A DNA stretch of 64,000 nt, taken from assembly GCA_964445525.1 (NCBI GenBank), contig CAYULA010000002.1, forward strand, positions 34,576 through 98,575, read 5' to 3'. Below are positions 28,847 through 63,278 of the stretch, one piece after another. This stretch comes from an uncultured Thermoplasmatales archaeon. GTDB taxonomy: Archaea > Thermoplasmatota > Penumbrarchaeia > Penumbrarchaeales > Penumbrarchaeaceae. How positions within the stretch are numbered: the first letter of the stretch is position 1; the number at the start of each line of letters is the position of its first letter. The notes beneath the pieces were generated by a model, which was not told the origin of the DNA, made no database searches, and was given only the letters and a program-made list of their open reading frames with translations. The position numbers were made by a program, and so were the translations under genes.

Positions 28847-28957
28847 GGGGCCAGGCTCCTGGGGGTGGTAGGATATATATCTAATAAATCTGGTTATAAC
28901 TAATTTACCACTGAATGGGTGAGCAATATTTATATTCCATACCCTTTGGGCGCCACA

Positions 28958-34125: not shown

Positions 34126-37100
34126 ATGAAACGAGAGGTATTCGCGGTACTGATTACATTCGGATTGTTATTGGTAACTGGAGAATCAGTTTTCGGTATA
34201 ATTGCCGAAAATGAGGATATTGAACCCATGATTCCAGAATTTGATTTTCAGTTTTCAGGAGGAAATGGGACCAAAATCAATCCATACAAAATCTCGAACA
34301 TAACGGAGCTCCAATGGATGGGAAATACGTCGAATCTGGATAAACATTTCATTTTTATAAACGATATCAATGCATCCGCAACTTTAACCTGGAATGGAGG
34401 AAATGGATTCGATCCGGTTGGTGATTCAAGCAACCGCTTCGATGGCTCGATTAACGGCAATGGTTACAAAATAATAAATTTATTAATAAACAGATCGAGT
34501 GATGACTTTGTAGGGTTGGTAGGTGATCTTGGAGTAACAGGATATCTCTCCAATATCACAATGCTAAATGCCTCGATAAATGGCGAGGACATTTGCGGAA
34601 TTCTTGCTGGCAGATCTTTCAAAGGAACAATTCATAATTGCTCCGTAAACGGATCGGTGAAAGGATCAACAAATATCGGAGGTTTGGTTGGCAGAAACCA
34701 TGAAGGAAAAATTTCAAATTGCTTTTCTGGTTGTAATGTAATCGGGAGGGGACAGAAAATTGGAGGTATGGTAGGTTATAATGAAGATGCAAAAACTTTT
34801 GAAAACTGTAGTTCAAGATCTTATGTTAAGGGAACTGAAAATGTTGGAGGATTGATTGGAGATAATGAAGGATCATTTATTGAATGGTCGAATTCAACAT
34901 CCATGGTGATTGGAACCGGAGCTGTGGGAGGTTTAATCGGGTATAATCATTTTTATTCAAGAATTACTAATTGTCATTCGAGATTTGAAATAAATTCCAC
35001 AAGAGATAATATTGGAGGACTTATCGGGAAGAATCAAAACAACTGTCCAATATTCCACAGTGGTTCAATTGGAAAAATAAATGGTAGGAATCAACTTGGA
35101 GGAATTGCAGGTTACAACAATCAAAAAATCATCAATTCATCCTCAGAGGTTGAAATAACAGGTCAAAGTATGATTGGAGGTTTAGTAGGAGAAAATCATG
35201 GAGAAATAAGGAATTGCACGGCTGATGCTGAAATTGAAGGTGTCCAAAGATTAGGAGGATTGGTTGGTGATGGTAGGGACAAATCGATTTATGATAGTAT
35301 ATCTTATGGAAATGTTACAGGAACCACTTACTATATCGGAGGATTTGTAGGTGGTATTATTTCGATTGATGTAATCAATTGTCGATCATATGCTAATGTT
35401 AATTCAACAGGAGAATATGTTGGTGGATTTGCGGGTTATCCAAGTTTATCTAATATAAAGAATAGTTTATCCGATTGTGAAGTAAAGGGAGAAACCAACG
35501 TGGGAGGTTTTTTAGGTGTAAACTCTTATTGTATCATTGAAAATTGTCATTCATTTGGATGGGTTAACAGTACAAAGGATTATACTGGCGGTTTCATAGG
35601 ATTGAATTTAGGTACGATATCAAATTGTTCCTCCCTTTCAAATGTTAACGGAAAGAAATCCACTGGAGGTTTAATTGGAAAGAACAATAATAATTATGAA
35701 ATTAAGGAATGTTTCTCCAATGGTAATGTTACAGGAACCGATTACATAGGTGGTTTAATTGGTGAGAATTACGGTAAAATCTTGAATTGTTATTCTCAAG
35801 GTGGTGTGAATGGACCTATGAATAAATTGGCATATTTTGGTGGTTTATTAGGATATAATAACGGTAGAGTAACAAATTCGTATTCCACAGGAAAAGTAAC
35901 CGGAACATTTAGGAAAGGATTCATTGGTGATAATTACGGAACAGTTCAAAATAGCTTTTGGGACTATGAATCTTCAGGAGTTACATATAGTGACGGTGGA
36001 ACAGGAAAAAACTCTTCCGAGATGAAATCTCAGAACACATTTTCATCAGCAGGATGGGATTTCAACGAAACCTGGTACATTATTGAAGATGAAACCTATC
36101 CAATGTTATCCAATAATTTAATGGATTATTCCGTTCCGGTATTTCTTGATGATTATACAAATATTTCAGGGTCTACCGGGACCAATTTTACCTTTAACAT
36201 TAGTGTAACAGATAATATTGGTTTAAGTTTTGTAATGGTAGAATTCTGGTATGGCAATGGTTCGCATTTAGAAAAACAATTGAAGCTCAATAATACATAT
36301 AAAACCTTTACTGAATTGCCCGTTAATTCCACTGATACCCTATATTATTTTTTTCACGCAAGAGATTTCAAGGGAAATACTAATTCTACACCAATAAAAA
36401 ATGTAACAATCAATGATATTTTGATCCCGTTTTTTAGTAATGAAACAACACAAAATAATGGTACGACCGGTGATCAATTTCAATTCAAGATATATGCATA
36501 TGACAATATCGGTATCCAGAACGTATATTTGGAATATTGGTCAAACTTCACAAAGAAAACTAATGTTTCCATGGAGGAAAACGGTTATTTTATCAAAAAT
36601 ATACTTTTACCCTCCAATGTAACAAATATCTCTTATCAGTTCCATGCAGTGGATTTATCTTTCAATTGGAAAAGCACAGATGTAAAAACTTTATTAGTAT
36701 TGGATAACGACAAACCTCTATTTGGTAAGGACCTCACTGCTGATAACTGGACAACAGGAGATATTGTCGAATTTTCCATTATTGTACAGGATAATATCAA
36801 TGTCAATAGTGTCAAAATAGAATACTGGTTCGGTTCGGGACCTCGATTCAATGAATCCATGGTTTTCGATTCTGGATCCTATACCTTCGATCTCATGATC
36901 CCCCCGGATTCGCTTGATCAGCTTCACTACATCTTCCATGCGGTGGATACCTCGGGCAACTGGAACAGGACCGATCAGATCGATGTGGCTGTTCTGGATG
37001 ATGATAGACCAATCTTTGGTATGGATGGATCTGCGGTTCTGGGAACCACAGGTGAACAGTACCGTTTCGGAATCGGAGTGGTTGACAATATCGGTATCGA

Positions 37101-38634
37101 GGAGGTCAAGGTGGAATACTGGTTCGGAGAAGGGCCTCACACCAATGTCACAATGACCGGGGGCGGTCCTTTTTCCCACATTGCCGATATACCACTGGAT
37201 TCTTCAGAAACACTGCATTACATCTTCCACGCATCGGATACCTCCGGCAACTGGAACCATACCCCGCAGGTGGATGTGGATATACTTGACAACGATCTGC
37301 CGGCATTCATGGAGGATCTCTCAGATACCACGGCGACAACGGGTGATAATTTCTCTTTCGAGATCGAGGTGACTGACAACATCGGTATCTCCGATGTTTA
37401 CGTGGAGTACTGGTTCGGGACCGGAGACCATAACAATGAATCCATGATTTCAGTGGATTCCTTTGGTTTGAGAATCGAGATCCCATCCGACTCGGTGGAG
37501 AGGCTCAATTACATCTTCCATGCAGTGGATGAATCCGGGAACTGGGCACACACGGACCGGGTGGATATCCAGATCGCAGATAATGACATGCCGGAAATGA
37601 TCGCCGACGAGAGTCCGGACGAAGCTTTTACCGGAGAGGATCTGGAGATAATTATCCGTGCAACCGATAACATCGGGTTGGCAGAGGTCGAACTTATCTG
37701 GATGATCGGATCGGATATTGATGAACAAAGAGTCGATATGGACCTCGAGTCAGGGAATTATGTTCACACCATCCAGGTTCCGGTCGATACGGTTGATCCT
37801 CTCCGGTACGTGATGAGGATAATCGATACCTCGGGTAACATATTCGAATCGGATGAAGCAACCATTACCATAACTGACAGTATATCTCCAACCGTCGATC
37901 CTGTGGATGATATCACTGTTTATGATGGACAGGACCTCGATGTCAATGTAACAGGGTCGGATAATATCGGTATCGCTTCATATTCGTGGGAAGGAGCTCC
38001 CATCGATGCAGATGGTTCCGAACTGAAAGGGATCGTGACAGTTCCGGGTGATCATGATATCACTGTCACCATTTCCGATGAGGAGGGCAATACCGATTCC
38101 ACTACTTTCAGAGTCACGGTTCTTGCGGAGGACCATGACACTGATTCCGACGGCATCCCGGACCTAGTCGAAATGGAGTGGGGCCTCTCCATCGAGGATC
38201 CTTCGGATGGCGAGGAGGATGCAGATAATGACGGGATGTCCAATGCTCTGGAGTATGCGAACGGGACCCTTCCCTTTGATGATGATACCGATGATGACGG
38301 AATGCCGGACGGATGGGAGGACAGCTACGGCCTGGATCCAACGACCTCCTCTTCAGATAACGATGCCGATGGTGACGGCAAGACCGACCTTGAGGAGTAT
38401 CGGGAAGGTACCGATCCTCTGATCAAGGAAAAGGAAGATGACGATGATGGCGGAGGATCCCCGATAGTGATCATTGTGATCATCGCGGTTGTTATCCTCA
38501 TTGCTATCGGTCTTTTGCTGTTTTTCCTTACCAGAAAGAAGGAAGAAAAATTGGAAAATGAGCCCTCCGATGGTCAGGACACATCAGAAAATGCTATTGA
38601 GGATCCAAGAGATGATGAAAATGAAAATCCTTGA
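34126..38634 (+). CDS. Giant (1502 aa) surface protein. An N-terminal array of ~25-aa GLUG-type repeats, eight ~100-aa Ig-like repeats, thrombospondin-type-3-like Asp-rich calcium-binding repeats, a C-terminal TM anchor and a short acidic tail.
   Basis: GLUG-like periodicity (...NIGGLVGRNHEGKISNCFSGCNVIGRGQKIGGMVGYN... repeated ~25 times). The repeated module ...DNIGI..V..EYWFG.G... occurs eight times. DTDSDGIPD, DADNDGMSN, DTDDDGMPDGWEDSYGLDP and DNDADGDGKTDLEEY are also present. TM IVIIVIIAVVILIAIGLLLFFL. Confidence 0.6.
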   Translation: MKREVFAVLITFGLLLVTGESVFGIIAENEDIEPMIPEFDFQFSGGNGTKINPYKISNITELQWMGNTSNLDKHFIFINDINASATLTWNGGNGFDPVGDSSNRFDGSINGNGYKIINLLINRSSDDFVGLVGDLGVTGYLSNITMLNASINGEDICGILAGRSFKGTIHNCSVNGSVKGSTNIGGLVGRNHEGKISNCFSGCNVIGRGQKIGGMVGYNEDAKTFENCSSRSYVKGTENVGGLIGDNEGSFIEWSNSTSMVIGTGAVGGLIGYNHFYSRITNCHSRFEINSTRDNIGGLIGKNQNNCPIFHSGSIGKINGRNQLGGIAGYNNQKIINSSSEVEITGQSMIGGLVGENHGEIRNCTADAEIEGVQRLGGLVGDGRDKSIYDSISYGNVTGTTYYIGGFVGGIISIDVINCRSYANVNSTGEYVGGFAGYPSLSNIKNSLSDCEVKGETNVGGFLGVNSYCIIENCHSFGWVNSTKDYTGGFIGLNLGTISNCSSLSNVNGKKSTGGLIGKNNNNYEIKECFSNGNVTGTDYIGGLIGENYGKILNCYSQGGVNGPMNKLAYFGGLLGYNNGRVTNSYSTGKVTGTFRKGFIGDNYGTVQNSFWDYESSGVTYSDGGTGKNSSEMKSQNTFSSAGWDFNETWYIIEDETYPMLSNNLMDYSVPVFLDDYTNISGSTGTNFTFNISVTDNIGLSFVMVEFWYGNGSHLEKQLKLNNTYKTFTELPVNSTDTLYYFFHARDFKGNTNSTPIKNVTINDILIPFFSNETTQNNGTTGDQFQFKIYAYDNIGIQNVYLEYWSNFTKKTNVSMEENGYFIKNILLPSNVTNISYQFHAVDLSFNWKSTDVKTLLVLDNDKPLFGKDLTADNWTTGDIVEFSIIVQDNINVNSVKIEYWFGSGPRFNESMVFDSGSYTFDLMIPPDSLDQLHYIFHAVDTSGNWNRTDQIDVAVLDDDRPIFGMDGSAVLGTTGEQYRFGIGVVDNIGIEEVKVEYWFGEGPHTNVTMTGGGPFSHIADIPLDSSETLHYIFHASDTSGNWNHTPQVDVDILDNDLPAFMEDLSDTTATTGDNFSFEIEVTDNIGISDVYVEYWFGTGDHNNESMISVDSFGLRIEIPSDSVERLNYIFHAVDESGNWAHTDRVDIQIADNDMPEMIADESPDEAFTGEDLEIIIRATDNIGLAEVELIWMIGSDIDEQRVDMDLESGNYVHTIQVPVDTVDPLRYVMRIIDTSGNIFESDEATITITDSISPTVDPVDDITVYDGQDLDVNVTGSDNIGIASYSWEGAPIDADGSELKGIVTVPGDHDITVTISDEEGNTDSTTFRVTVLAEDHDTDSDGIPDLVEMEWGLSIEDPSDGEEDADNDGMSNALEYANGTLPFDDDTDDDGMPDGWEDSYGLDPTTSSSDNDADGDGKTDLEEYREGTDPLIKEKEDDDDGGGSPIVIIVIIAVVILIAIGLLLFFLTRKKEEKLENEPSDGQDTSENAIEDPRDDENENP

Positions 38635-41269: not shown

Positions 41270-43708
41270 TTGGCTCTGAAGGATCACGGATTGACTGCCC
41301 GGGAAGGGATAATGCTCCATCTTCTGGAATGCGATATCTACAGAAATGACGATATTGTGCCGGAGTCAGTGACACAGCCGGGAATCGCCAGGGCATTGGA
41401 CACTGACAGGAGCTATGTTTCCTTCGTCCTGTCGCAGATGGAGAGCAATGATACGGTGATAAACAAGCTGGGCAGGATCCAGGGGGGAAAGAGGAGAAGG
41501 AAGGTCTACTTCCTAACGGAGGAAGGGCTGAAATATGCCCAAGATATCAGGACCCTGATCTCCGGAATCCGGATTGCATACAAGAGCAAGGGGAAGGAAC
41601 TCAACAATCCCCTTGGATATGTCGCTTCCGAGGCAGGCCTCTCACTGACCACCATGGTGGTGAACATGGATGCCTCATCGGTTTTCGACCTTGACGATAT
41701 CACCCTTCTCGGCAGGACCAAAAAGAGATCCCCCGGAGGGCCCAGAGGTCCTCCTGTTCCCGATAATTTCAAGGGCAGGAAAAAAGAGATCTCAATTATC
41801 AGGTCCTGGTTGAAGGGAAGCTCCGGCATTCTCCAGGTCAACGGCATCGCGGGAACGGGAAAGACATCACTTGTGGGGAAAGCTCTCGAGGAGGAAATCG
41901 ATCCCGAACTGACCACGATTTACATTCCCGTACCCTCCTGGGGGGATGATTCGTCACTGATGACGAACCTCTCCAGGGAGCTTGAATCGGCAAATAGGTT
42001 GTCACTATCCAGCCTGCAGAAGGAGAAGGGCTCCCTTTCCCTGGATGAGTTCGCGAGAGGCCTCGAACAGGAGATATCAAGGAAATCCATGCTCCTGAAC
42101 CTGGATGACGTTCACAATCTTATCGGAAAGGGAAGGAAAAGCAAGGTCCTCGATCTGATCATCAGTATGTCCGTAAAGGACCTTAAGACCATTCTGATCT
42201 CCAGGAAGCCTCTCGAGCTTGACCCCAGGTTATCAATGAGATCGGATCCCCCCCTAATCCTGGAGGTGGCTGGATTGAAGAAGAACGATGTCAGAAGCCT
42301 TTTCGAGGACCACGATCTCGATTTCAACAATGATATCTATTCCAGAACCTCCGGTCATCCCCTCTACGTGAATCTTATTATCCATCATCACTGTCAGGGA
42401 GATGCGCTTGAACCCGGAAAGAGCATAAGGACATTCATCCGAAACGAGGTCCTGGAATGTCTCAACAGAACGGAGATGGACCTTCTGGATATCATGTCCG
42501 TTTTCAGGGTCCCAGTATCCAGGGAGAGGCTGTTCGATCTGGATGCCGGGGACCTTCTGATATCCGAGTCGGGCCTGCAGAGCCTGATGGGAGGGGGGAT
42601 ACTGACCGGAGGGGAGGGGTCCATCGTGATCCACCAGCTTATTAAGGATATTGTTCTCGAGATGATGCCCAAGAGCAGGTCTCTCAGGATACACAGGATC
42701 TTATCGGAACATTACAGGGAGAGGCTGGATCTCCAGACGATGCCGGTAAAGGATGTTTCCGGGAGGATCATCGATCTCAGGGAATACCTGCACCATATCT
42801 GGACCTGCGGAACAATCGGAGAAAGACTCTCCGCAATTTCCGACATGGGAGAGGAGATCATGAGCAGGTCCCTCAATGATGACCTGGAGAGATACAGCAA
42901 GGATATGCTGGATGAGATATCCCGGTCCCATGAAGCGGAATCACTCGATCCATCTCTCATGATCAGGATAATGATCTATCACGGATGGTGCCTGTCCGTC
43001 AGAGGAGAATGGGAAAAGGCCCTTGAAGAATACGACAGGGCCAGGATGAAAGCTGAGGAGATCCCCAGCTGGGACCTGGTTGGCAGATGCCTGAATGCCG
43101 TCGGGACCATACATCTCAGGAGGGGCGATCCCGAAAATGCCAGGGAGCTGATATCGAGGTCCATCGAGTTGATGGATGACAGGCGCACCCTTTGCAAGGC
43201 AAGGTCAAATCTTGCCATAGTACACTGGATGGAGGGACGCCTCGAGGAAGCCCTGGAGGAGGTTGACAGATCCCTGGATCTTGCACTGTATCTGGATGAT
43301 GCCATGGGAGTATCCAGGGGACTGATAAACAAGGGAATAATACTGGCCCAGATGAATGATTTCGAGGGATCGGGTTCCGCTTACGAGAAAGCCCTTGACA
43401 TATGCGAGAGGGAGGGTTTTTCCCAGACATTATCCATAGTACACGACAATCTCGGTGAGATAAGAAGGGAACTGTGTGACCTGGAGGCTTCCAGGAAACA
43501 TTTCGAAAAGAGCCTCTCGCTGGCAGCTGATCTCGGCTTCAGGTGGCAGGTGGCTGAGGCCACCCGGAACCTGGCATCCCTCACGGAGAAGGGACCGAGG
43601 AGAACCGGAATGTTCATGGAGTCCATTGAGATTTTCAGGGGCCTCGGTGACCTGAGAGAGGTCGAGAGGACCGAGGAGATGATGAGGGAGAGTCCCGATA
43701 AGGAATAG
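41270..43708 (+). CDS. STAND-type NTPase: N-terminal winged-helix DNA-binding domain, AAA/NB-ARC-like P-loop ATPase, C-terminal TPR array
   Basis: The N-terminal wHTH-like region is ...DIVPESVTQPGIARALDTDRSYVSFVLSQME.... Walker A GIAGTGKTSLVGKAL. The C-terminal ~300 aa are TPR-like (...ALEEYDRARMKAEE..., ...EEALEEVDRSLDLAL..., ...SAYEKALDICEREG...). Confidence 0.6.
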   Translation: MALKDHGLTAREGIMLHLLECDIYRNDDIVPESVTQPGIARALDTDRSYVSFVLSQMESNDTVINKLGRIQGGKRRRKVYFLTEEGLKYAQDIRTLISGIRIAYKSKGKELNNPLGYVASEAGLSLTTMVVNMDASSVFDLDDITLLGRTKKRSPGGPRGPPVPDNFKGRKKEISIIRSWLKGSSGILQVNGIAGTGKTSLVGKALEEEIDPELTTIYIPVPSWGDDSSLMTNLSRELESANRLSLSSLQKEKGSLSLDEFARGLEQEISRKSMLLNLDDVHNLIGKGRKSKVLDLIISMSVKDLKTILISRKPLELDPRLSMRSDPPLILEVAGLKKNDVRSLFEDHDLDFNNDIYSRTSGHPLYVNLIIHHHCQGDALEPGKSIRTFIRNEVLECLNRTEMDLLDIMSVFRVPVSRERLFDLDAGDLLISESGLQSLMGGGILTGGEGSIVIHQLIKDIVLEMMPKSRSLRIHRILSEHYRERLDLQTMPVKDVSGRIIDLREYLHHIWTCGTIGERLSAISDMGEEIMSRSLNDDLERYSKDMLDEISRSHEAESLDPSLMIRIMIYHGWCLSVRGEWEKALEEYDRARMKAEEIPSWDLVGRCLNAVGTIHLRRGDPENARELISRSIELMDDRRTLCKARSNLAIVHWMEGRLEEALEEVDRSLDLALYLDDAMGVSRGLINKGIILAQMNDFEGSGSAYEKALDICEREGFSQTLSIVHDNLGEIRRELCDLEASRKHFEKSLSLAADLGFRWQVAEATRNLASLTEKGPRRTGMFMESIEIFRGLGDLREVERTEEMMRESPDKE

Positions 43709-45271: not shown

Positions 45272-47329
45272 CTATTCGAATGGATCCTTCTCATCCTTTT
45301 TCTTGGAGGTCCTATTGAGCAGTATTATGAACAGCAATATCATAACTATCACAACCACCACTATAATGATGATCAAAAGTGTGTTCATCATCTTGACACT
45401 TTCAAGTTCATCTTCTGTTGACCTGAGGTCCTCCTCCAGTGCGCCTCTGGATTCCGATGCGGCATCGATATCGCTCTCGGTATCCGAAAGCCCGGACTCC
45501 ACGGAATCTATCCTCGATCCTTCATTCTCCAGCAGGGATTCCAGTGAATCGATGGTGGAGTTCAGGGATTCGAGGTCCGATAAAAGGTCTTCCAGGTCCT
45601 CCTCGCTGATATTGAGGTCCTCCGAAAGGGAGGTAAGATTGGAATCAAGCGAAGAGATATCCTCCCTGATCATGGTGAGGTTCTCGAGGATGTGAAGGAT
45701 ATCTGCCTGCGTGAGGGCAAGGTCCTCGATCAGAGTAGGTATCGGGTCCGTGAAATTCACGGTCCTTGTGACGGTTTCGGAGTTACCGGAAGCATCCGTT
45801 GACGTGATGGTGATCAGGTTGCTCCCGGGGTAAATGGGAATGTCCAGCTGGAAGTAACCAGAATTTGATACATCGGCCACGATCCCGTTCACAACAACCG
45901 TGGCAAGACGTTCCGTGGTTCCGTTCACGGTCACCACCGGTGTGGAACAATTTCCATTGTCTTGAGGTCCGAAAACATCTATGGACGGAGGTACATTATC
46001 ACGCTCGAAGTAGGTGTTGGCCCAGACGCTTGGTTTTTTCGTATCATACTGGATCCAGGCTGAAATGGCATTTCCGAAGAGACCGATGTCCACAACCGGC
46101 GAATAGCAGAATGTTAACCTGGACTCAATGAGTTGTTCTGTGGACCAACCTTTTTCGGGTGTATACCTGCAATATGCAACATTGTAGGTGTCATCTTTCA
46201 GCCAGTTGCATACCATTATCGCTTCCCCTGACCGAGCCATGGAGATATCCGAACTGGTGGCGCTCTCCACGAGGATCTCTGCTTCTCCCCAACCTGTTTC
46301 CGGGGAGTAATCGTTGGTAATGATATTGTTATCGACACCATCGATCTGCCTCCAGACAGCGATGGCATTTCCCTGTCCATCCATTCCAATCCTGGGATAT
46401 CTTTCATTGGTATCATCATATGATTCGATGATTTCATCCGATCCCCAGCCCGATCCTGCCACATATCTGTTTGAGAACATGTCGTATCCTGTACCTGGAT
46501 CCTTTGACCAGACCACCAGGGCGTTTCCATCCTCATCCATGACAACACCGGGTGTGTCCACATTTCCGGGGTCGCCGCTGTCAATCCTCTCGGCCGACCC
46601 CCATCCTATGTCGGGAACATAAACATTGGCCCATACTGTAAATCCACTTGGGGTGAACTGTTTCCATGCCACAACCGCCCTGCCGGACGGATTCACGAAA
46701 ATACTTGGATACAGGGAAGACCCGGAATCAACGGTCTCCACAAGCTCGGAAGTTCCCCAACCGGAACCTCTGACCCATCTGTTTGCCCAGATACTCATTT
46801 CGCCTCCATCGTTCTGTCTCCAGACAACGATTGCAGTTCTACCCAACCTATCCATGGAAACCTCCGGATTCTCAACATTGTTGACCTCATCGGTTTCCAG
46901 AAGAACAGCTTCCTCCCAACCATCACCAATATGTCTTGTTCTTGCATAGAGATTGTATGAGGACCCTTCCAACTGGGTCCAGACCGCTACATAGTGACGA
47001 CCTTCGGGACCAACATCGATTGATGGGTACCTTGCATCCGTGAATCCGGCTGTATCGATAACCTCGGGAACATCCCACCCTGTGTCCTTGTCATAAACGT
47101 TTGTCATGGCATTGTCATAGCTGCCATCGTCCTGTATCCATATTGCACAGGCATCGTTCATATCATGGACTGCCACATCGACACTGTATGATGCCCCTTC
47201 ATGTTCGTTCTCCAGCAGCACCGGATTCTGCCAGCCAACGGGTGGCTCCTCTGCATTTGACGGCAATATCATCAACGATGAAACCATCAACATCAAACCA
47301 GCAAGTAAACAGTAAGATCCCGTTCTCAT
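45272..47329 (-). CDS. Secreted surface protein with a ~7-blade repeat region (likely beta-propeller), an Ig-like domain, an acidic Ser/Leu-rich coiled coil, a C-terminal TM anchor and a short Lys-rich tail
   Basis: Signal peptide. About seven repeats of the type ...VAVWTQ..GSSYNLYARTRHIGDGW... / ...AIVVWRQNDGGEMSIWANRWVRGSGWG.... Coiled coil ...LEDLLSDLESLNSTIDSLESLLENEG.... TM LLIIIIVVVVIVMILLFIILL. Confidence 0.55.
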   Translation of the reverse strand: MRTGSYCLLAGLMLMVSSLMILPSNAEEPPVGWQNPVLLENEHEGASYSVDVAVHDMNDACAIWIQDDGSYDNAMTNVYDKDTGWDVPEVIDTAGFTDARYPSIDVGPEGRHYVAVWTQLEGSSYNLYARTRHIGDGWEEAVLLETDEVNNVENPEVSMDRLGRTAIVVWRQNDGGEMSIWANRWVRGSGWGTSELVETVDSGSSLYPSIFVNPSGRAVVAWKQFTPSGFTVWANVYVPDIGWGSAERIDSGDPGNVDTPGVVMDEDGNALVVWSKDPGTGYDMFSNRYVAGSGWGSDEIIESYDDTNERYPRIGMDGQGNAIAVWRQIDGVDNNIITNDYSPETGWGEAEILVESATSSDISMARSGEAIMVCNWLKDDTYNVAYCRYTPEKGWSTEQLIESRLTFCYSPVVDIGLFGNAISAWIQYDTKKPSVWANTYFERDNVPPSIDVFGPQDNGNCSTPVVTVNGTTERLATVVVNGIVADVSNSGYFQLDIPIYPGSNLITITSTDASGNSETVTRTVNFTDPIPTLIEDLALTQADILHILENLTMIREDISSLDSNLTSLSEDLNISEEDLEDLLSDLESLNSTIDSLESLLENEGSRIDSVESGLSDTESDIDAASESRGALEEDLRSTEDELESVKMMNTLLIIIIVVVVIVMILLFIILLNRTSKKKDEKDPFE

Positions 47330-50628: not shown

Positions 50629-51063
50629 ATGGGAATAGTGACTTTGGCCGGACCCTCCCTGGCGAAGGTGGGTACAGTATTCAAGTATGCGGGTCCAGCG
50701 GACGAATGCGAGGAATGCGGCCTAAAAGCCGTTTGCCACAAATTGAAACCCGGATACAAATACAAAGTTTCCGCCGTCAGGGACGTGGAGCATCCATGCG
50801 AGGTCCACTCCGGAGCTATAGTGAAGGTGATCGAGGTAGAGGAGCTTCCGCTGGAGGCCGCAATCCCTTCGAGGAAAGCACTTGAAGCGGCCCTGATCGC
50901 ACTTGACGAACCCGAATGTCCCAGAAAATGGTGCCCCAATCATGCGCTTTGCACCGTTCCGGAGGATGTAAGGGGTGGAAAGGTCGCCGTCAAGGAGATA
51001 AAAGGCCAACTGGAATGCCCCAGGGGTTTAAAGCTCAAGAAGGTCATTGTGGAACCTCGCTGA
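50629..51063 (+). CDS. Conserved archaeal Cys-rich protein (UPF0179-like)
   Basis: 144 aa with conserved Cys pairs (CEECGLKAVC, ...CEVHSG..., ...ECPRKWCPNHALC..., ...ECPRG...). The assignment is from memory of the UPF0179 pattern. Confidence 0.4.
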   Translation: MGIVTLAGPSLAKVGTVFKYAGPADECEECGLKAVCHKLKPGYKYKVSAVRDVEHPCEVHSGAIVKVIEVEELPLEAAIPSRKALEAALIALDEPECPRKWCPNHALCTVPEDVRGGKVAVKEIKGQLECPRGLKLKKVIVEPR

Positions 51064-52389: not shown

Positions 52390-52872
52390 ATGGATATAGA
52401 GAGCGTTCCGATAGAGAAACCCGATGACATCAATTTCATACTGGGTCAGTCCCATTTCATAAAGACGGTTGAGGACATCTACGAGGCTATTGTGAACGTC
52501 AATCCGGAACTCAAGTTCGGACTGGCCTTCTGTGAGGCTTCCATGAACTGTCTGGTCAGGTTCACCGGAAATGACGACGAGATGACAGAACTTGCAAAGA
52601 CCAATGCGAAAAGAATCGGGGCCGGACATTCCTTCATCATATTCATGAAGAACGGATTCCCCATCAACATCATTCCCAGATTGAAGGAGGTCCCCGAGGT
52701 CTGCAGGTTGTTCTGCGCCACTGCAAACCCCACCGATGTCCTGATAGTGGAGAACGATAGGGGCAGGGGGATCGTCGGTGTCATAGACGGCAGCAAGCCC
52801 AAAGGCATCGAAGGTCCCGAGGACAAGGAATGGAGAAGGGATTTCCTCAGAAAGATAGGATACAAGCAGTGA
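52390..52872 (+). CDS. DUF355 / adenosine-specific-kinase-family protein (archaeal)
   Basis: 160 aa with ...GLAFCEAS...[19 protein letters not shown].... Resembles the PF04008-type small archaeal proteins. Confidence 0.4.
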
Positions 52873-52890: not shown

Positions 52891-54855
52891 ATGGAAGACG
52901 AAGAGGGGAAGGAGGAAGGGACAGACGAAAAGAAGGCTCCCTCATTCACTCCGGTGAAAGCCATCATGCCGATTACCATGATGGTGGTACTGATCGTTGT
53001 AACACTGGCTCTTGCACTGTGGATAGGCCCCTATTTCGATGCGCTTGGAATTACATCGGAGATGAGCGAGTACGCCGACAATCCACTCTACGCATTCGTG
53101 TTTCTCGGATTCGTGATAGCCTTTGCGGTGTTCATCTTAGTTCTAAGGAAGCTCCTCAAGAGAAGAAGGTTCAAGCTGAAGTACATCTTCGCGTTTGCGG
53201 TCCTCCTCTCGTCCCTTTACATCCTCACGCCCGTGGTGGATATAATCGCGAACGGTTTCCCGGAGGTGTGGGAGGAGTACGATCTCGATATCGATGGCAT
53301 CCGGGGAGCTCTCCCCCTCGATCCGGAGGACTCCGGGAAGGGTATCATCATAGTAGCCGACACCTCCTTCCATGTCCTTGAAAGGGACGAATACGAATAT
53401 GACGAGGTCTGGATGATCGACGGTCTCGAAGAGACATTTGACCCCCATTTCAGCAACGGCCTGTGGGCCTTTGCGGGCAAGGACCAGGGAGAGAACAGAT
53501 ACTGGACAGTGGATGTCCAAGGAGAGGAGACATCATCGGGAACCGTGGAAAATGATAACTCTACCATGGATCTGCTAGGTGTTTCCGTCGCTTACCCCAA
53601 CGGAACTCATTACCTCATATCATTCTGGGAAGGAGAGGGAAACTGGTCCCTTCTTGCCAACAAACCCGGATCAGGAAGTTACTGGTCACCGATAGAATAC
53701 ATCGGTATCAACGAAGGGCCATTCCATCCTGTATTCGGCTGGTCAAACAACCGGTTCCATTACATCGCTGATGATTCTGTCAGATACCTGAAACTGGAGG
53801 CAAGCGAAGAAAAACTCAAGACCACAGGAAGTGGAGGGTCCGGAATCGGAAACTTCACCTGGACGGTTTCTCAGGGGGAGAATGTACTTCTTTGGTCGCC
53901 TGACCCTTATCTCAAAGCAGGAGATGGGTCGCCGACGAAAGAAAATGTAATCATAACCACCTTCATCATCGAGGGAAATTCTCACACCCACACCAAGGAA
54001 GGATACCACACCGGTCCGGTTGAAAACGGATACATGGTATCTTTTACGGAAAAAAATGAAGATCACAGACTTCTCTATCTCTCAGGAGACGAGGTCGGTG
54101 TTTTAACACCGGATTCGGAAGATACCTATTCCTTCACGGAGGATCCCATTGCCGTGTTCCAGGACGGTCCCGGCGGGGATATCTATCTCGTTTTCGAGGG
54201 AGCTGTCCTCATAGGCGATTTCGAGGACCAGGAGAGGATGCAGGTCTGGATCCAGGTTGCAGCCTTCCTGATCTCTCTTGGAATACTGGTACTCCTCCTC
54301 AAGGTCCCCAAATGGTGGATAATAGACATATCCGGGATCCTGATGGGGGCCGGCGTGGTCGCATTGATGGGGACCTCATTCCCGCTTCTTTTCACACTGC
54401 TTTTACTGATACTGCTTGCTATCTACGATGCGATCTCGGTATACAAAACAAAACACATGATTTCCCTTGCGGATGCGGTTGTGGAGTCCAAGATGCCCAT
54501 ACTCCTGGTATTCCCGATGAGGCTGGATTACCGCTACGAGGACGAGACCAACCTGATGGATCCCAAGCGCAAGAGGGAGTCCCTCTTCATGGGACTGGGA
54601 GACGTGATAATACCGGGAATACTGGTGGTATCCTCGTTCGCCTGGCTTCCGAGGGCAGAAGGATTGTTCGGCATCTCAGGTCCCTTGACGGTCGCATTGT
54701 TCTCACTTGCGGGAATGCTTTTAGGCTATGCCGTTCTGATAGGATGGGTTCTCAAGGGAAAGGCCCATGCGGGCCTCCCTCCTCTTAACGGAGGGGCCAT
54801 ACTCGGATTCCTTCTGGGGCATCTCCTTGTATACGGAACCTTCGTTTTCTGGTGA
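52891..54855 (+). CDS. Presenilin/signal-peptide-peptidase-like GxGD intramembrane aspartyl protease (9 TM) with a ~330-aa hydrophilic insertion between TM3 and TM4
   Basis: YD motif in a TM helix (LLAIYDAISVY). GLGD motif in the next helix (LFMGLGDVIIPGIL). A PAL-like motif near the C-terminus (HAGLPPLNGG). Nine hydrophobic segments. The insertion between TM3 and TM4 (residues ~130-450) is hydrophilic and has NxS/T sequons. Confidence 0.65.
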   Translation: MEDEEGKEEGTDEKKAPSFTPVKAIMPITMMVVLIVVTLALALWIGPYFDALGITSEMSEYADNPLYAFVFLGFVIAFAVFILVLRKLLKRRRFKLKYIFAFAVLLSSLYILTPVVDIIANGFPEVWEEYDLDIDGIRGALPLDPEDSGKGIIIVADTSFHVLERDEYEYDEVWMIDGLEETFDPHFSNGLWAFAGKDQGENRYWTVDVQGEETSSGTVENDNSTMDLLGVSVAYPNGTHYLISFWEGEGNWSLLANKPGSGSYWSPIEYIGINEGPFHPVFGWSNNRFHYIADDSVRYLKLEASEEKLKTTGSGGSGIGNFTWTVSQGENVLLWSPDPYLKAGDGSPTKENVIITTFIIEGNSHTHTKEGYHTGPVENGYMVSFTEKNEDHRLLYLSGDEVGVLTPDSEDTYSFTEDPIAVFQDGPGGDIYLVFEGAVLIGDFEDQERMQVWIQVAAFLISLGILVLLLKVPKWWIIDISGILMGAGVVALMGTSFPLLFTLLLLILLAIYDAISVYKTKHMISLADAVVESKMPILLVFPMRLDYRYEDETNLMDPKRKRESLFMGLGDVIIPGILVVSSFAWLPRAEGLFGISGPLTVALFSLAGMLLGYAVLIGWVLKGKAHAGLPPLNGGAILGFLLGHLLVYGTFVFW

Positions 54856-54901: not shown

Positions 54902-55636
54902 ATGGAATCACTGATAGCTATACTGATCCTGATGTTCCTGCTCGGAACGGTCCAGGGTCTGACCGTATGCAATCTCACCTGCGGACCCCTGCTGATTCTC
55001 CGGCTTGCGGGACAGTCAAGAGGTGCCAGGGAGGGCCTGGGCCTTTCATTTCTCTTCTCGATGCCCAGAATAATCATCCTCACAATACTCGGAGCTCTCC
55101 TTGGAGCCCTGGGTTTCTCCATCTCATCACTTGCGGGCCTCTCATCTTTTCCCTGGTTCCAGGCAGTTGTATACATCATAATCGCTTTGATCATGATAGC
55201 CACCGGTTTCAGGTTCCTTGGATTCCCAAAAAAAAGGAGCAAGGACTGTCATGAACACGGATCGATGAACCGACTGCTGATGCTCATCATGAAACTCGGT
55301 CCGAGAAAAGGAGAGGCCGAGAAGAGATCCATGGTAGGCCTCGGGATCCTGGTATCCCTGATCTGTTTCGTGGAGGCATCCGGAGCTTCCCTGGCGGTGG
55401 CGCAGATGCTCTCACTGGATACCGGGGAGATCGGCTCCGGTATAATGGTTGGATCTCTAACGATGTTCTTTTATTCCGTCGGTCTGGCAGTCCCTCTACT
55501 GATCCTCGGTTCGGGGGCCTCGGAACTCGGAAAGAGATTGAACAGAGATGATGTCAGGATCGTGGGGGGGATACTCCTTATCGGATTCGGGTTACTACTG
55601 CTCATATTCGAGTTCATATCGATATTATTGTTCTAG
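54902..55636 (+). CDS. Polytopic membrane protein with a CxxxC motif in TM1. Possibly a DsbD_2/CcdA-like or TauE-like family member.
   Basis: ...GLTVCNLTCGPLLIL... in the first TM, and a second half with ...SGASLAVAQM.... Two homologous halves separated by a charged loop. Confidence 0.35.
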   Translation: MESLIAILILMFLLGTVQGLTVCNLTCGPLLILRLAGQSRGAREGLGLSFLFSMPRIIILTILGALLGALGFSISSLAGLSSFPWFQAVVYIIIALIMIATGFRFLGFPKKRSKDCHEHGSMNRLLMLIMKLGPRKGEAEKRSMVGLGILVSLICFVEASGASLAVAQMLSLDTGEIGSGIMVGSLTMFFYSVGLAVPLLILGSGASELGKRLNRDDVRIVGGILLIGFGLLLLIFEFISILLF

Positions 55637-55924
55637 GAAGAACAGATGGGAACCGCACCTGCAGTCCGAGCAGCCGAATCCTCTGATCGAATCGAATCTT
55701 TCGGAAAGAAGGGAAGCCGTCCCGCACTCATCCCCTTCCATATGTTCTTTGAAAAAAACCTTTCTGGATGTGGAATGACCTGTAATAGAATCGATGTGCC
55801 ATCTCCTCCTATTAGGGTTGGATAGATGTCTCTTCACCCTCCCCCAGAGTCCGGATTTCGCCGATCCGACATAGGCATATCTACCCTTCTTAAATGAAAC
55901 AGAACCTAGTGAACCCACATTCAC
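55625..55924 (-). CDS. DUF123-family (GIY-YIG-like) small protein. The conserved N-terminal region continues in frame upstream with no ATG, so this is either a non-canonical start or a pseudogene.
   Basis: ...FKKGRYAYVGSAKSGLWGRVKRHLS...RRRWHIDSI...GFGCSDCRCGSHLFF matches the DUF123 pattern. In frame upstream of the GTG used by the ORF table, the sequence reads ...PATYILILDFDVDREVNVGSLG..., which is also conserved-looking. The frame opens right after the aCPSF1 stop. Confidence 0.5.
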   Translation of the reverse strand: MNVGSLGSVSFKKGRYAYVGSAKSGLWGRVKRHLSNPNRRRWHIDSITGHSTSRKVFFKEHMEGDECGTASLLSERFDSIRGFGCSDCRCGSHLFFLEQ

Positions 55925-58925: not shown

Positions 58926-61900
58926 ATGAGATCACTTTCCCTTCCAACCGCCCTCGGTATTCTGATCATTGTTGTCGCGGGTCCCTCAAGCATGATAGCT
59001 GTGGAAGGGGACCAAGAACCTTTCGAGGATATCATCCCTCTCGACACCCAGGTTCCGCTTTCATTCAGGGGATGGGACAGAGACAGCGACGAAAACAGAG
59101 TGGATGACATGCTTTCGGGAAATGAGAACCTGGATGTCACCGAAGGTATGATAGGAATAAACGTCCACATGAAAGGACCCGTTACAGCCAAAGATGTGAG
59201 ATCCGTGATGGAAAGAGCTGAGGTCCTGGGTATGGATCCCGTTTTTCTGAGGGTCGGCTCCCATACAACTGCAATCTATCTTCTGGTCAGGGAATCCAAA
59301 GATTTCCGATCGCTTCTCATAGGAAACGTGGAATTTGTGGAGTACAGACCAATGACGATCCCATTTCTGGATTCGTCCTCGCCAGGGGTGAGGGCGGCCT
59401 CTTCCTCTGTTTACTCTCCTTTCACCGCAGAGGACCTTGGATACACGGGAGAGGGGATCACCATCGCTGTACTGGATTCCGGGGTGGATAACACTCTCCA
59501 CGAATCCCTCAGAGGGAAATACGAATACGGTGTTGATTTCACGGGGACAACGGTAGTCCAGGGCCTTGACCCCGATGACGTGGACGGCCACGGAACCCAT
59601 GTCGCCGGGACCGCACTGGGTTCCGGAGGAGGCACCGAAACCTACAGGGGAACGGCTCCCGAAGCCTCCCTGGTTGACCTGAAGATCTTCAAGACCTTCG
59701 GATCCTTCCTCGGGAACTCGGACCAGGCTTTCGAGTGGCTTATAGACAATCATGAGGAGAGGGATATCAAGGTGGTATCCTGCTCTTTCGGTTCCACCAA
59801 TCCGACATCCGGTCGCGATACAACCGCCCAGCTGGCAAACAGGCTGGTGGACGAGGGTGTCGTGGTTGTGGCCGCTGTTGGAAATGACGGAGCCCAGGGA
59901 ATACCGAGCCCTGCTTCGGCGGACAAGGTTATCTCGGTTGGAGCCTATTCGGATCAGGATACTATCGGGAGGGGAGACGATGTTGTTCAGGGATTCTCCA
60001 ACAGGGGACCGAGGAACAGCGACGGGGACCTGGACCAGACCGATGAATTGAAACCGGACATCTCCGCCCCGGGAAGGGACATCAGGGCCCCCAATCACAA
60101 TTCCGTTTTCGAGTATGTGGACAAGACAGGAACCTCGATGTCCTGCCCTCACATATCCGGAATTGCGGCATTGATGCTGCAGGCCAATCCCGAACTGTCC
60201 CCCTCGGATGTAAAATCCATTTTGAGAGACACAGCCCAGCAGGAATATTCCCCCTCAAGGCAGAATATCGATGACAAATACAATTACAGGTCCGGGTGGG
60301 GCCTCGTTGACGCGTACGGGGCTGTAAAGAGGTCTGTTGACCTGCTCAACCTCGAGATATCATCTCCGGTGGAGGTCGCTTCCGGGATCCCGCTTGATAT
60401 CAGGTTAACGGGTGAATTCACGAAGACCGAATACGATGAAACCCCGGACATTCACGAGATGGAGTTGAGGACCCCGTACGGTTGGGGAATACCTGACGAT
60501 ATCCGGACGGATCCCGACATGCTCGATGCGGATGTGGAGGTTATAGGCCCCGGAAGATCAGGGGACTCATGGATAACGACATTGAGAACATATTACAATT
60601 CAAGCTTCGAAGGGGCGGAACCCGAACTCTCCGTTACCGTGATACCCTCGGGCGGGGTAGGAGATTCCGGTAATGTACTCGGAACACTTACCATAAACGG
60701 GATCAATCTCAAAGCGGAGGTAAAGGAGATCAATATCACCGAAGGCCCCTCTCCTCCTGACCTCTCCATAGTCCCTCTTGCCATTTCATTTTCGGACAAT
60801 CTTCCCGAGAACGGTGACACCGTTGTGATAAACGTAAGGGTGAACAACACCGGCGGAAGGACCGTCGAGAACGCTCTGATCAGGCTCCTGGACGGTCCGG
60901 AAAGGACCGGGACGGTGATCGGAGAGGATACCATAATGGTGCCGTCCAGTTCATTCGGCATGGCGGAATTCGAATGGGTGGCCAATCCGGGGATCCATGC
61001 GATAACGGCAATAGCGGATCCGGAAAACGAGATAGCCGAATCCGACGAGGACAACAACGAGGCGGAGAGGCCCCTGACTGTCCGGGGTATAAATCCCCCG
61101 CCGGTTGCCCAGCTGGAAGTCAGTCCCTCCCAGGGAACCACCGTCACGAGGTTCGTGTTCGACGGGTCCTCATCACAGGACACCAACATAAGGGGAGGGA
61201 ACGTGGTTGCATACAACTTCGATTTCGGGGACGGGACCGAAAGCGGATGGGTGGATACATCCACAATAGAACACAGGTATCTTTCCGGTGGGAGCTACAC
61301 CGCATCATTGAGGGTCAGGGACAACGGCGGGGGGGAATCCACCAATGACGCGGAGGTGCAGGTCAACGTCTCCGAGGTTTCCTCCAGCAAGCAAGTCCTC
61401 TACCTGACCAACGATTCCAGGCTGGACCCGGACCCGGGTCCCCCGGGCAGCCGCGAGGTCGAGGGAAGGGTCGGTGAATGGTCCTCCGATCCCCTGGAAG
61501 AGACCAGAATGATCGGATCGCTTCTTTCCCTTAGAATGGAGATAACATCAATGGATCAGGGCGAGATGGAATACGAGATCGGTCTCCTGGTAGATGGTGA
61601 CGAGAGGGTCTTCCATACTGGATCGCAGACCCTCCTGGGAGGAGAGCAGAGCTTCCAGGTCGATATTACCATAGAGGAGCTGGTGGTGAAGGCTGGAGAG
61701 GACATATCCCTTGCCATATCGGCCACATCCTCAGCATCCGATACAAGACTGCTTGTTGGAGAGGACGGCACATTCCTGGAATACATGTATTACAATCCTC
61801 CCAACATGCCTCCCGAGGTGAATGCGGGAGAGGATATCGAGGTAAGGGTTGACACTCCCGTTACGTTCTCCGGTACAGCGGACGACCCCGACGGAAACAT

Positions 61901-63278
61901 CGAGAACATACGATGGGACATTGACGATGACGGAGTATACGAGAGCGAGGGGTTGCTTACCTTCGAGTACTCCGGATACAACGAGGAAGGCATATTCCAG
62001 GCGGTTCTTGAGGTGATGGACGACGACGGTGCCTGGTCCTCGGATTCCCTGGAGGTTATCGTCAGGCCATCAGACTACAATTTCCCTCCGTCGGTCACAA
62101 TCGATTGCGGGAAGAATTTGACGGGAATGGTGGAGATAACGGGCACCGCAGAAGATGACGTATCCGTCGAATCAGTTGAGGTAAGGATCGAATCCTCAGA
62201 TGGGGAAGTGCTGCCATGGACGGAAGCGGACGGGGAAGAGGAATGGTCCCTCGAATGGGATTCCAGGGGAGTTCCTGACGGTGAATACACCATCTCGGCC
62301 AGGGCATTCGACGGATCAGTTTACTCCGAGACCGATACCTGCCCGGTACGTGTCTCCAACATCAACACACCGCCGGAGATCATCGATTTTGAGATGGATC
62401 CTCCCTCCATGATATCGGGTCAGGAGATAATGATCATGATAACCGCCGTGATATCGGATCCGGACATTCCCGGAGACAGCCTGGAGGTTATCGTGGATCT
62501 GGGGAATCTGGAAGGTCCTCCGTCCCTGGCCCTTGCCGATGACGGCAGGGGAGCCGATGAAGAGGACGGGGACGGTATTTTTTCGGCCGTATTCGATCCT
62601 CCCGTTGATATCCAGCCTGGGACATACAGAATCTTTGTCGAGGCCCGGGATTCCGCAGGCGGTATCGATCAGGATTTTGTTGATTTCAGCGTGGTGTCCG
62701 ATATCATGATAATCCCCAATATATCCCCTACAGACCTTGATCCCGGCGAGGAGGTCCTCATAGAGGTGGAGATCGACACGACCCTTGATGTAATAATAAG
62801 GGCGGAATCCGAACTCTTTCCCAATGGTTCGGTGACCCTGAACGATCAGGGACTGGAGGGTGACAGGGTCCTCGGAGACGGCATCTATTCCAGGAAACTG
62901 GCAATAGACGGCGATCCAGGAAGGTATCCGGTCCTTATAATCGTGGAGGAGGACGGATCGGTCCTCTCCAGGGAAGAGATGGTCATCAGAATAGTTGGAT
63001 CTCCCCAGACCCAGGCGGATGAGGAATCGGGATTGGTATGGATCCTCATCGCGGGTGCTGTTGTGATATTACTCACTCTGGTCATTGTTCTCATGATAGT
63101 TCTGGGTCGGAGGAGCAAACCGGAGATTGATCCTACCCCGGTATACGATCTGCCAATGGTTGCAGAAGTGGTGGAGGCGGAGGTCCTAGAGGGAGAGCTC
63201 CCCGTCGAGGGAGAGATGCCAGAGGTATCCCAGGATCCCGAGTATTCCTATCAGGACGGCTCCCTCCAGGCCGAGTGA
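58926..63278 (+). CDS. Giant (1450 aa) subtilisin-like serine protease (S8) with PKD/Ig-like domains, a C-terminal TM anchor and an acidic cytoplasmic tail
   Basis: Signal peptide. Catalytic Asp (ITIAVLDSGVD), His (HGTHVAGTA) and Ser (GTSMSCPHISG). A PKD-like module (...FVFDGSSSQDTN...YNFDFGDGTE...). TM LVWILIAGAVVILLTLVIVLMIVL. Confidence 0.8.
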   Translation: MRSLSLPTALGILIIVVAGPSSMIAVEGDQEPFEDIIPLDTQVPLSFRGWDRDSDENRVDDMLSGNENLDVTEGMIGINVHMKGPVTAKDVRSVMERAEVLGMDPVFLRVGSHTTAIYLLVRESKDFRSLLIGNVEFVEYRPMTIPFLDSSSPGVRAASSSVYSPFTAEDLGYTGEGITIAVLDSGVDNTLHESLRGKYEYGVDFTGTTVVQGLDPDDVDGHGTHVAGTALGSGGGTETYRGTAPEASLVDLKIFKTFGSFLGNSDQAFEWLIDNHEERDIKVVSCSFGSTNPTSGRDTTAQLANRLVDEGVVVVAAVGNDGAQGIPSPASADKVISVGAYSDQDTIGRGDDVVQGFSNRGPRNSDGDLDQTDELKPDISAPGRDIRAPNHNSVFEYVDKTGTSMSCPHISGIAALMLQANPELSPSDVKSILRDTAQQEYSPSRQNIDDKYNYRSGWGLVDAYGAVKRSVDLLNLEISSPVEVASGIPLDIRLTGEFTKTEYDETPDIHEMELRTPYGWGIPDDIRTDPDMLDADVEVIGPGRSGDSWITTLRTYYNSSFEGAEPELSVTVIPSGGVGDSGNVLGTLTINGINLKAEVKEINITEGPSPPDLSIVPLAISFSDNLPENGDTVVINVRVNNTGGRTVENALIRLLDGPERTGTVIGEDTIMVPSSSFGMAEFEWVANPGIHAITAIADPENEIAESDEDNNEAERPLTVRGINPPPVAQLEVSPSQGTTVTRFVFDGSSSQDTNIRGGNVVAYNFDFGDGTESGWVDTSTIEHRYLSGGSYTASLRVRDNGGGESTNDAEVQVNVSEVSSSKQVLYLTNDSRLDPDPGPPGSREVEGRVGEWSSDPLEETRMIGSLLSLRMEITSMDQGEMEYEIGLLVDGDERVFHTGSQTLLGGEQSFQVDITIEELVVKAGEDISLAISATSSASDTRLLVGEDGTFLEYMYYNPPNMPPEVNAGEDIEVRVDTPVTFSGTADDPDGNIENIRWDIDDDGVYESEGLLTFEYSGYNEEGIFQAVLEVMDDDGAWSSDSLEVIVRPSDYNFPPSVTIDCGKNLTGMVEITGTAEDDVSVESVEVRIESSDGEVLPWTEADGEEEWSLEWDSRGVPDGEYTISARAFDGSVYSETDTCPVRVSNINTPPEIIDFEMDPPSMISGQEIMIMITAVISDPDIPGDSLEVIVDLGNLEGPPSLALADDGRGADEEDGDGIFSAVFDPPVDIQPGTYRIFVEARDSAGGIDQDFVDFSVVSDIMIIPNISPTDLDPGEEVLIEVEIDTTLDVIIRAESELFPNGSVTLNDQGLEGDRVLGDGIYSRKLAIDGDPGRYPVLIIVEEDGSVLSREEMVIRIVGSPQTQADEESGLVWILIAGAVVILLTLVIVLMIVLGRRSKPEIDPTPVYDLPMVAEVVEAEVLEGELPVEGEMPEVSQDPEYSYQDGSLQAE

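Follow-up and report, generated by a model that had tools for sequence, protein, structure and literature searches.

The locus encodes a PSH-type protease with a long insertion

The window analysed here is the whole 64-kb stretch of contig CAYULA010000002.1, from an uncultured Thermoplasmatales archaeon, and all positions and strands below are those of the window. At 52891 to 54855 (+) it carries a complete gene for an intramembrane aspartyl protease of the PSH type (MEROPS A22, PF06550) into which a beta-propeller is predicted to be inserted; we refer to it as the PSH-propeller gene. Its open reading frame (ORF) starts with ATG, encodes 654 amino acids (aa) and ends with a stop codon at 54853-54855. 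A sequence-only reading of this DNA had taken the product for an A22/presenilin family protease on the strength of its motifs, and the searches confirmed that identity. The NCBIfam model NF041679 ("presenilin family intramembrane aspartyl protease PSH") scored the protein, in two stretches, at 240.4 bits, well above its curated cut-off of 125. In Pfam, PF06550 ("SPP, presenilin aspartyl protease") reached E=7.5e-53 and 180.3 bits (cut-off 23.9) and PF04258 reached E=1.1e-9 and 38.8 bits (cut-off 23.3), and the best hidden Markov model (HMM) for the protein was the archaeal PSH model and not the SPPL-type PF04258. The sole relative with a solved structure is the 301-aa PSH of Methanoculleus marisnigri (4hyc, 4hyd, 4hyg and 4y6k). 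A phmmer search against the PDB aligned aa 462-651 with residues 111-296 of the 4hyc chain (E=1.8e-45), a stretch that includes the YD, GxGD and AGLPPLNGGAILGF motifs, and found a second, weak match of aa 31-113 to residues 13-90 of the same chain. All criteria that can be tested on the protein sequence place it in the archaeal PSH family.

The catalytic motifs lie where the sequence-only reading had put them. The YD motif (Y512-D513, LLAIYDAISVY; 54424-54429, +) falls in transmembrane helix (TM) 6 and aligns with the YD of the solved PSH, and the GLGD motif of the GxGD type (G568-D571, FMGLGDVIIP; 54592-54603, +) falls in TM7 and aligns with the GMGD of 4hyc. A PAL-type motif, P-P-L (P630-L632, AGLPPL; 54778-54786, +), stands ahead of TM9, within the string AGLPPLNGGAILGF that is identical in 4hyc. 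In an alignment of 13 homologues that share the long architecture (the long forms), YD and GLGD were invariant, PPL was invariant or nearly so, AGLPPLNGGAILGF was nearly invariant, and the cytoplasmic loop between TM6 and TM7 was almost invariant as well. Since both the catalytic signatures and this loop are kept, the protein is most likely an active intramembrane aspartyl protease.

The insertion replaces the TM3-TM4 hairpin and is predicted to lie outside the cell

Nine helices were delimited from hydropathy and from the secondary structure of an AlphaFold2 model: TM1 27-51, TM2 65-85, TM3 98-120, TM4 452-471, TM5 476-493, TM6 497-518, TM7 563-585, TM8 597-621 and TM9 634-653. D513 and D571 thus lie inside TM6 and TM7, respectively. 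The first part of the protein (52891-53250, +) comprises an N-terminal cytoplasmic tail (aa 1-26) and TM1 to TM3 (aa 27-120), with an acidic first outer loop (SEMSEYADNPL) and a strongly basic cytoplasmic loop, RKLLKRRRFKLK; its assignment draws on profile alignment, on the weak phmmer stretch and on charge counts. The TM4-TM9 catalytic core (aa 452-654) occupies 54244-54852 (+). In a profile-profile alignment (hhalign) of the 13 long forms with 22 canonical PSH proteins of ~310 aa, aa 453-653 corresponded to canonical positions 108-309 (E=6e-68) and aa 27-113 to canonical positions 7-89 (probability 94%, E=1.1e-7). It follows from the two half alignments that ~18 canonical residues, the TM3-TM4 hairpin, are replaced by aa ~114-452, and the ~330-aa insert that had been proposed between TM3 and TM4 is indeed found there. 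The same result speaks against a frameshift fusion, given that a single ORF has TM1-TM3 homology upstream and TM4-TM9 homology downstream of the insert and is conserved in all homologues.

The sequence-only reading had further described the insert as hydrophilic and extracytoplasmic. It is hydrophilic by hydropathy over aa ~121-451 and carries a net charge of -44 (-19 to -44 across all homologues). Lysine and arginine residues number 4/8/1/9/2 in the predicted cytoplasmic segments, 24 in total, versus 0/0/1 in the short outer loops, a total of 1. Because this count fits the N-in/C-out topology of presenilins, the rules of membrane topology predict a nine-TM protein with the N terminus inside, the C terminus outside and the insert outside the cell. 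The several N-glycosylation sequons noted earlier are present but carry less weight than their number might imply: the four N-x-S/T sites are not above chance for a lone sequence (shuffle mean 2.1, P=0.14). At each of their positions (223, 237, 251 and 321), however, 5-8 of 12 homologues have a sequon, and enrichment in sequons (P<=0.01) is seen in four homologues, so that the sharing of sites lends mild support to an outside location.

The insert is predicted to fold as a beta-propeller

The insert proper (aa 121-451, 331 aa; 53251-54243, +) is acidic and free of cysteine. It is entered from TM3 through the junction N-G-x-P-x-x-W (NGFPEVW; 53251-53271, +), of which N121, G122, P124 and W127 are invariant in the 13 homologues, and is left through E-R-x-Q (ERMQ; 54232-54243, +), directly ahead of TM4, with R449 and Q451 invariant. 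Elsewhere in the insert the invariant residues are almost all glycine, tryptophan or proline. The constancy of both junctions suggests a fixed packing of the inserted domain against the core. An AlphaFold2 run on the insert only, with an alignment of 11 sequences, gave a model with a mean predicted local distance difference test score (pLDDT) of 87.8, a predicted TM-score (pTM) of 0.88, 27 beta-strands and no long helices. The insert region kept a pLDDT of ~90 in a model of the full-length protein, in which the TM core was poor (mean pLDDT 65.8, pTM 0.59).

A Foldseek search of the PDB with the insert model returned 399 matches at E<=1e-3, and all 50 of the matches listed were beta-propellers, mostly seven-bladed, with a probability of 1.00, TM-scores of ~0.52-0.56 over the whole domain and ~10% identity. 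Examples are WDR91 (9dta; E=1.8e-7, TM-score 0.55), Swd1 (6e29), YncE (7seu), PALB2, RFWD3 and EED, and YVTN/lactonase-like bacterial propellers were among the best superpositions (Dtox_1751, 3u4y; root mean square deviation 5.5 A). The predicted fold is thus an all-beta propeller of about seven blades, the number of blades being judged from the 27 strands and from the type of the matches. In the model the last blade is three-stranded and a short first strand stands by itself, which points to a "velcro" closure that would bring the two chain ends together. A propeller with its ends side by side would probably fit splicing into a hairpin loop with the helices undisturbed. That the protein consists of a PSH core with a beta-propeller in the TM3-TM4 loop is, in our judgement, close to certain.

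The likeness to known propellers stops at the predicted fold. At E<=5, Pfam returned nothing for 10 of 11 insert sequences and one stray DUF3994 match (E=0.17) for the other. The insert showed no family HMM or repeat motif of named propeller families (WD40, PQQ, YVTN, Kelch, NHL, TolB-like and others), and profile self-comparison detected no internal blade repeats in it. The 64-kb window contains no second copy of the propeller. A Ser-His-Asp catalytic site within the insert ("SFH", "LPLDP") was considered and rejected, because H161 and D144 vary in more distant homologues.

The propeller is confined to one lineage of Thermoplasmatota

With the insert as query, phmmer found seven proteins at E<=1e-3 in an exhaustive search of 1.84 billion cluster representatives. 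Five of these are PSH proteins built in the same way (four with 641-668 aa, the fifth a fragment of 249 aa); the other two, the giant Ig-like repeat proteins P0014 and P0017, were rejected as relatives, since they are T/D/G/S/V-rich tandem repeats and match by composition. A word-indexed search with the whole protein gave 10 relatives at 45-96% identity, nine of them insert-bearing and 641-677 aa long, the tenth (P0009, 522 aa) being frameshifted after the insert. No stand-alone relative of the propeller was found among the 1.84 billion representatives or by a profile of 12 insert sequences. By these searches the predicted propeller is an orphan domain that is known only inside one PSH clade. 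The uninterrupted long architecture occurs in 13 full-length homologues from independent assemblies, which the databases name plainly as "presenilin family intramembrane aspartyl protease PSH".

Searching with the catalytic core instead recovered 5769 PSH proteins. Short-contig fragments of long forms (71-88% identity) set aside, the nearest canonical PSH proteins are 44-55% identical to the core and mostly 296-333 aa in length. In a neighbour-joining tree of the C-terminal core only, 14 long forms were monophyletic on a long stem (0.12), which fits a single acquisition of the propeller. We also scanned GTDB contigs (one genome per species) with the full-length alignment and obtained 15 loci from ~14 metagenome-assembled genomes (MAGs), some of them cut at contig ends. 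Each of the 15 carries the label Thermoplasmatota, Thermoplasmatales or Thermoplasmata, with "ex4484_6" and "Protein_d157_A_EX4484-6" among the names; the insert is restricted to a single lineage of Thermoplasmatota. The uncultured class EX4484-6, for which the name "Candidatus Penumbrarchaeia" has been proposed, comes from a protein-fed enrichment of marine sediment (PMC12220078); the paper that describes it mentions neither presenilin nor intramembrane proteases (PMC12220078).

The insert-only alignment holds no conserved stretch of 7-10 columns. At two loci, L014 (1-1222) and L015 (1-1494), the gene has a much more divergent long hydrophilic insert, of which only the last ~77 residues align (hhalign E~1e-4), and the downstream neighbours are those of the main group as far as the contigs reach. 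These two inserts indicate that the insert-bearing clade is somewhat wider than searches with the insert sequence reveal. Going by these comparisons, the insert changes so quickly that sequence searches can miss it.

The insert diverges faster than its surroundings and is constrained

For pairwise divergence, the window was set against L020, a collinear contig of 98% identity that is free of indels, the insert being taken as window 53245-54240 versus L020 3355-4350. The proportion of synonymous differences (pS) in the insert was 0.127 and that of nonsynonymous differences (pN) 0.030, a ratio of ~0.23, compared to a pS of 0.024-0.039, a pN of 0-0.004 and a pN/pS of ~0.1 or less in the two TM parts of the gene. 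Neighbouring genes had a pS of 0.016-0.073. The insert is therefore the divergence hotspot of this 8-kb stretch, synonymous sites included (Fisher P=2e-4 versus the core). Its pN/pS points to a real domain under purifying selection. The synonymous excess may reflect recombination affecting a variable surface domain.

The gene lies in a conserved neighbourhood that differs from the canonical PSH slot

The PSH-propeller gene is flanked by two co-directional genes. A gene of the PF04008 ("adenosine specific kinase") family ends 18 nt upstream of its start (52390-52872, +; Pfam E=3.7e-74), and a DsbD_2/CcdA-like membrane protein gene begins 46 nt past its stop (54902-55636, +; PF13386 E=5.8e-13). 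Both always adjoin the PSH-propeller gene in related MAGs, and co-transcription of the three is plausible. The wider order runs from rpS13 and UPF0179 through hmgA, PF04008, PSH-propeller and DsbD_2 to DUF123, aCPSF1, proteasome beta and a 1450-aa S8 subtilase, and it is kept in every MAG locus to the limit of each contig (15 loci). Since the whole region is syntenic in related genomes, adjacency tells little about function. A role of the DsbD_2/CcdA-like neighbour in forming disulfides of the propeller was rejected, as insert sequences contain 0-1 cysteines and none is conserved. The cluster is also flanked by two small, conserved genes whose function is not known, a DUF123 gene with a weak GIY-YIG-like match (55625-55924, -) and a UPF0179 gene (50629-51063, +). 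Wherever the contigs extend far enough, both keep their place in the related MAG loci, except that DUF123 was not detected in L004. In L003 (CAWEDU010000009.1) we noted frameshifts at 7367-7368 and 8947-8955, both in the long PSH gene, near residue 446 (hence the database proteins P0009 and P0019), and in the adjacent DUF123 gene; they are probably assembly errors and not signs of pseudogenes.

From its surroundings, the gene had been proposed to belong to a core region and to have a housekeeping role instead of a mobile origin. The core location stands: G+C content across the gene is 0.49-0.53, similar to the flanks, and synteny is conserved, so that a foreign or mobile origin was rejected. 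The housekeeping role is not established, because the slot differs from that of canonical PSH. In other Thermoplasmatota, the canonical ~310-aa PSH gene lies in the order CTP synthase-aIF2beta-PSH (five contigs: L016, L018, L022, L023 and L024). It stands directly downstream of aIF2beta in four of the five, with one opposite-strand gene between them in the fifth, and is followed by a Metallophos gene in 4/5, often with rpS8e next. Neither a second PSH gene nor an aIF2beta/S8e slot was present within the window. The long form may accordingly be a relocated orthologue or a specialised paralogue of canonical PSH.

Elsewhere in the window, a 985-aa protein (26126-29083, -) has both Redoxin/thioredoxin-like and DsbD_TM domains; alongside the DsbD_2 gene, it suggests that the organism has an extracytoplasmic thiol-redox machinery. 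An 821-aa protein (1398-3863, -) has C-terminal winged-helix domains of the HTH_24/HVO_0163 type, and an 812-aa protein (41270-43708, +) with AAA_22 and TPR domains is STAND-like.

Comparison with known systems

The long form shares with the canonical PSH MCMJR1 (4HYC/4HYG) the nine-TM layout, YD in TM6, GxGD in TM7 and AGLPPLNGGAILGF before TM9. It differs in that canonical enzymes of ~296-333 aa have a TM3-TM4 linker of ~18 aa at the place where the 331-aa propeller is predicted here. The core is only 44-55% identical to the nearest canonical PSH, and the long forms are a separate clade. It also has another genomic setting, PF04008-PSH-DsbD_2 in contrast to aIF2beta-PSH, the latter usually with Metallophos next. 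A PSH with a beta-propeller in an outer loop is an undescribed design within a known family; in the literature searched we found no description of a presenilin or PSH with a propeller.

Gamma-secretase, like the long form, joins a presenilin-type core to a large extracytoplasmic domain, a likeness that we take as a functional analogy only. There the ectodomain is two-lobed, is not a propeller and belongs to nicastrin, a single-pass subunit of its own (PMC7248309), whereas here the ectodomain is within the protease chain. No nicastrin-family Pfam match was obtained in the 654-aa protein or in the insert sequences, and the comparison implies no homologues of APH-1, PEN-2 or nicastrin. SPPL2a/b/c are closer in that an A22 protease has a non-cytosolic domain of its own, one that influences substrate recognition (PMC12043953). 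That domain, however, is an N-terminal PA domain of another fold, while the propeller of the long form would be an insertion within a loop; no PA-domain Pfam match was seen in the 654-aa protein or in the insert sequences. SPP and SPPL proteases moreover sit in the membrane the other way round and act on type II substrates (PMC2947513). RseP/RasP also have an extracytoplasmic domain in their own chain, a filter that admits only substrates whose ectodomain has been shed (PMC7728848). The analogy is again only functional, RseP and RasP being zinc metalloproteases with another core fold and with PDZ domains instead of a propeller. As for generic seven-bladed propellers (9dta, 6e29, 3u4y, 7seu), the insert is predicted to be alike in fold but is only ~10% identical and gives no family HMM signal.

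The propeller as a candidate substrate-selecting ectodomain

Taken as a whole, these data are in our view best explained by a catalytically competent PSH whose outer propeller acts as a built-in substrate-selecting ectodomain, to which we assign a probability of about 0.5. For the more particular claim that the propeller is a cis-acting substrate gate or docking platform, the chances appear slightly below even. According to this model, the short TM3-TM4 hairpin would have been replaced once, in one Thermoplasmatota lineage, by a propeller of ~330 aa. Held at both ends by the outer tips of TM3 and TM4, the propeller would sit beside or over the outer mouth of the substrate path. In PS1, the substrate pocket is formed by TM2, TM3, TM5, TM6 and TM7, and TM3 and TM4 contact PEN-2 (PMC7248309); because TM3 walls this pocket, a propeller tied to TM3 and TM4 should flank or cover the mouth. 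The outer juxtamembrane stub of a substrate would emerge at the mouth, near the propeller, which could decide which single-pass membrane proteins gain access to the active site. Steric size exclusion of substrates that still have a large ectodomain attached might be one means, and a docking site for the substrate stub or for a partner protein another. A gate or docking platform in cis is favoured by three precedents: nicastrin is a steric hindrance to substrates whose ectodomain is long (PMC7248309), RseP filters by size exclusion through its tandem of periplasmic PDZ domains (PMC7728848), and the PA domains of SPPL2 proteases discriminate among substrates (PMC12043953).

Several points weigh against a substrate-selecting role. 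Even for canonical archaeal PSH it is not known which proteins are the physiological substrates (PMC2947513). The canonical enzyme cleaves in vitro without a cofactor (PMC2947513), so that an ectodomain is unnecessary for catalysis. The position of the propeller at the mouth is inferred, and the TM core of the full-length model is the poorly predicted part. Furthermore, the TM3-TM4 hairpin is the docking site of PEN-2 in PS1, and the insertion might have occurred there just because the spot is permissive. Finally, the conserved residues of the insert seem to be structural ones, and they revealed no conserved surface for binding.

The window also encodes at least six large proteins (685-1502 aa) with a signal-like hydrophobic N-terminal segment, a single C-terminal TM and an acidic tail, predicted from these features to be type I surface proteins: 58926-63278 (+), 34126-38634 (+), 18055-21015 (-), 23133-26123 (+), 31383-33971 (+) and 45272-47329 (-). 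They carry Ig-like, PKD, CARDB, fn3 or GLUG domains, and the protein at 58926-63278 is the S8 subtilase that is syntenic with the PSH gene in related MAGs. Type I proteins of this sort would be cut by a presenilin-type enzyme once shedding has occurred. Speculatively, these six could be candidate substrates of the PSH-propeller protein or, in the case of the subtilase, a candidate sheddase. A single-chain "presenilin plus gatekeeper" can be envisaged, in which a cis propeller over the mouth would let through none but type I surface proteins already freed of their ectodomain, for instance by the conserved neighbouring surface subtilase. This would be an independent, convergent case of ectodomain gating in presenilin-type proteases, and its one-polypeptide form would be amenable to mutagenesis and to structure determination. 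We put this forward tentatively and consider it rather doubtful in this specific form.

Alternative explanations

Instead of selecting substrates, the propeller could be a sensor or regulatory module that binds an extracellular ligand or partner and switches the protease allosterically. Beta-propellers are generic binding platforms, the invariant junctions at TM3 and TM4 could pass on a conformational change, and TM3 and TM4 move with PEN-2 in conformers of gamma-secretase (PMC7248309). The insert also diverges fastest locally, which is what a surface that keeps up with variable partners would do. However, we identified no conserved pocket residues, and among the adjacent genes (PF04008, DsbD_2, DUF123 and aCPSF1) no regulator or anti-sigma-like gene stands out; we therefore regard allosteric control as unlikely, though worth keeping in mind. 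In a structural or anchoring role, the propeller would stabilise the enzyme, as a PEN-2-like support in cis, or tether it to the envelope or S-layer and leave substrate choice unaffected. Such a role finds some backing in the position of the insertion, precisely in the TM3-TM4 hairpin where PS1 contacts PEN-2, in the structural glycine, tryptophan and proline residues that make up the conserved part of the insert, and in the YVTN/lactonase-like bacterial propellers among the best superpositions. Against it, thousands of canonical PSH proteins work with a linker of ~18 aa, which makes a stabiliser unneeded, and a 330-aa domain under purifying selection would be costly for stabilisation alone, so that we think a purely structural role improbable.

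Were the PSH core an inactive pseudo-protease, it would be a mere membrane anchor for an extracellular propeller with a function of its own. Nothing specific favours this, beyond the separate genomic slot, which means that a canonical paralogue could supply the protease function. The invariance of YD, GLGD and PPL with their surroundings, the almost invariant TM6-TM7 loop and the strong purifying selection on the core (pN/pS ~0.1 or less) all oppose it and render it very improbable. An artefact, be it a fusion of two genes by frameshift or mis-assembly or a spurious ORF, could be suspected from the frameshift at about residue 446 in the related locus L003 (P0009). A frameshift in the DUF123 gene next to it suggests, however, that the assembly of this locus is faulty, whereas in the window PSH homology continues in one frame on both sides of the insert and the ORF is continuous in the 13 full-length homologues as well as in matching genomic loci. 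We consider the chance of an artefact to be negligible.

Implications

Archaeal PSH is the standard minimal model of presenilin and works without cofactors, while the choice of substrates by presenilin and the contribution of the nicastrin ectodomain are still debated. A PSH with its own outer domain at the edge of the pocket would make the role of an ectodomain testable in a single polypeptide. The tolerance of the TM3-TM4 hairpin for a 330-residue insertion is useful for engineering and for fiducials in cryo-electron microscopy, and the orphan propeller family can serve as a marker for a poorly known archaeal lineage (EX4484-6, "Ca. Penumbrarchaeia"). If gating proves untrue, the protein would be a curiosity of domain architecture in uncultured archaea. 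If the single-chain gatekeeper is true, the propeller would do for an archaeal presenilin what nicastrin and the PDZ tandem of RseP do elsewhere.

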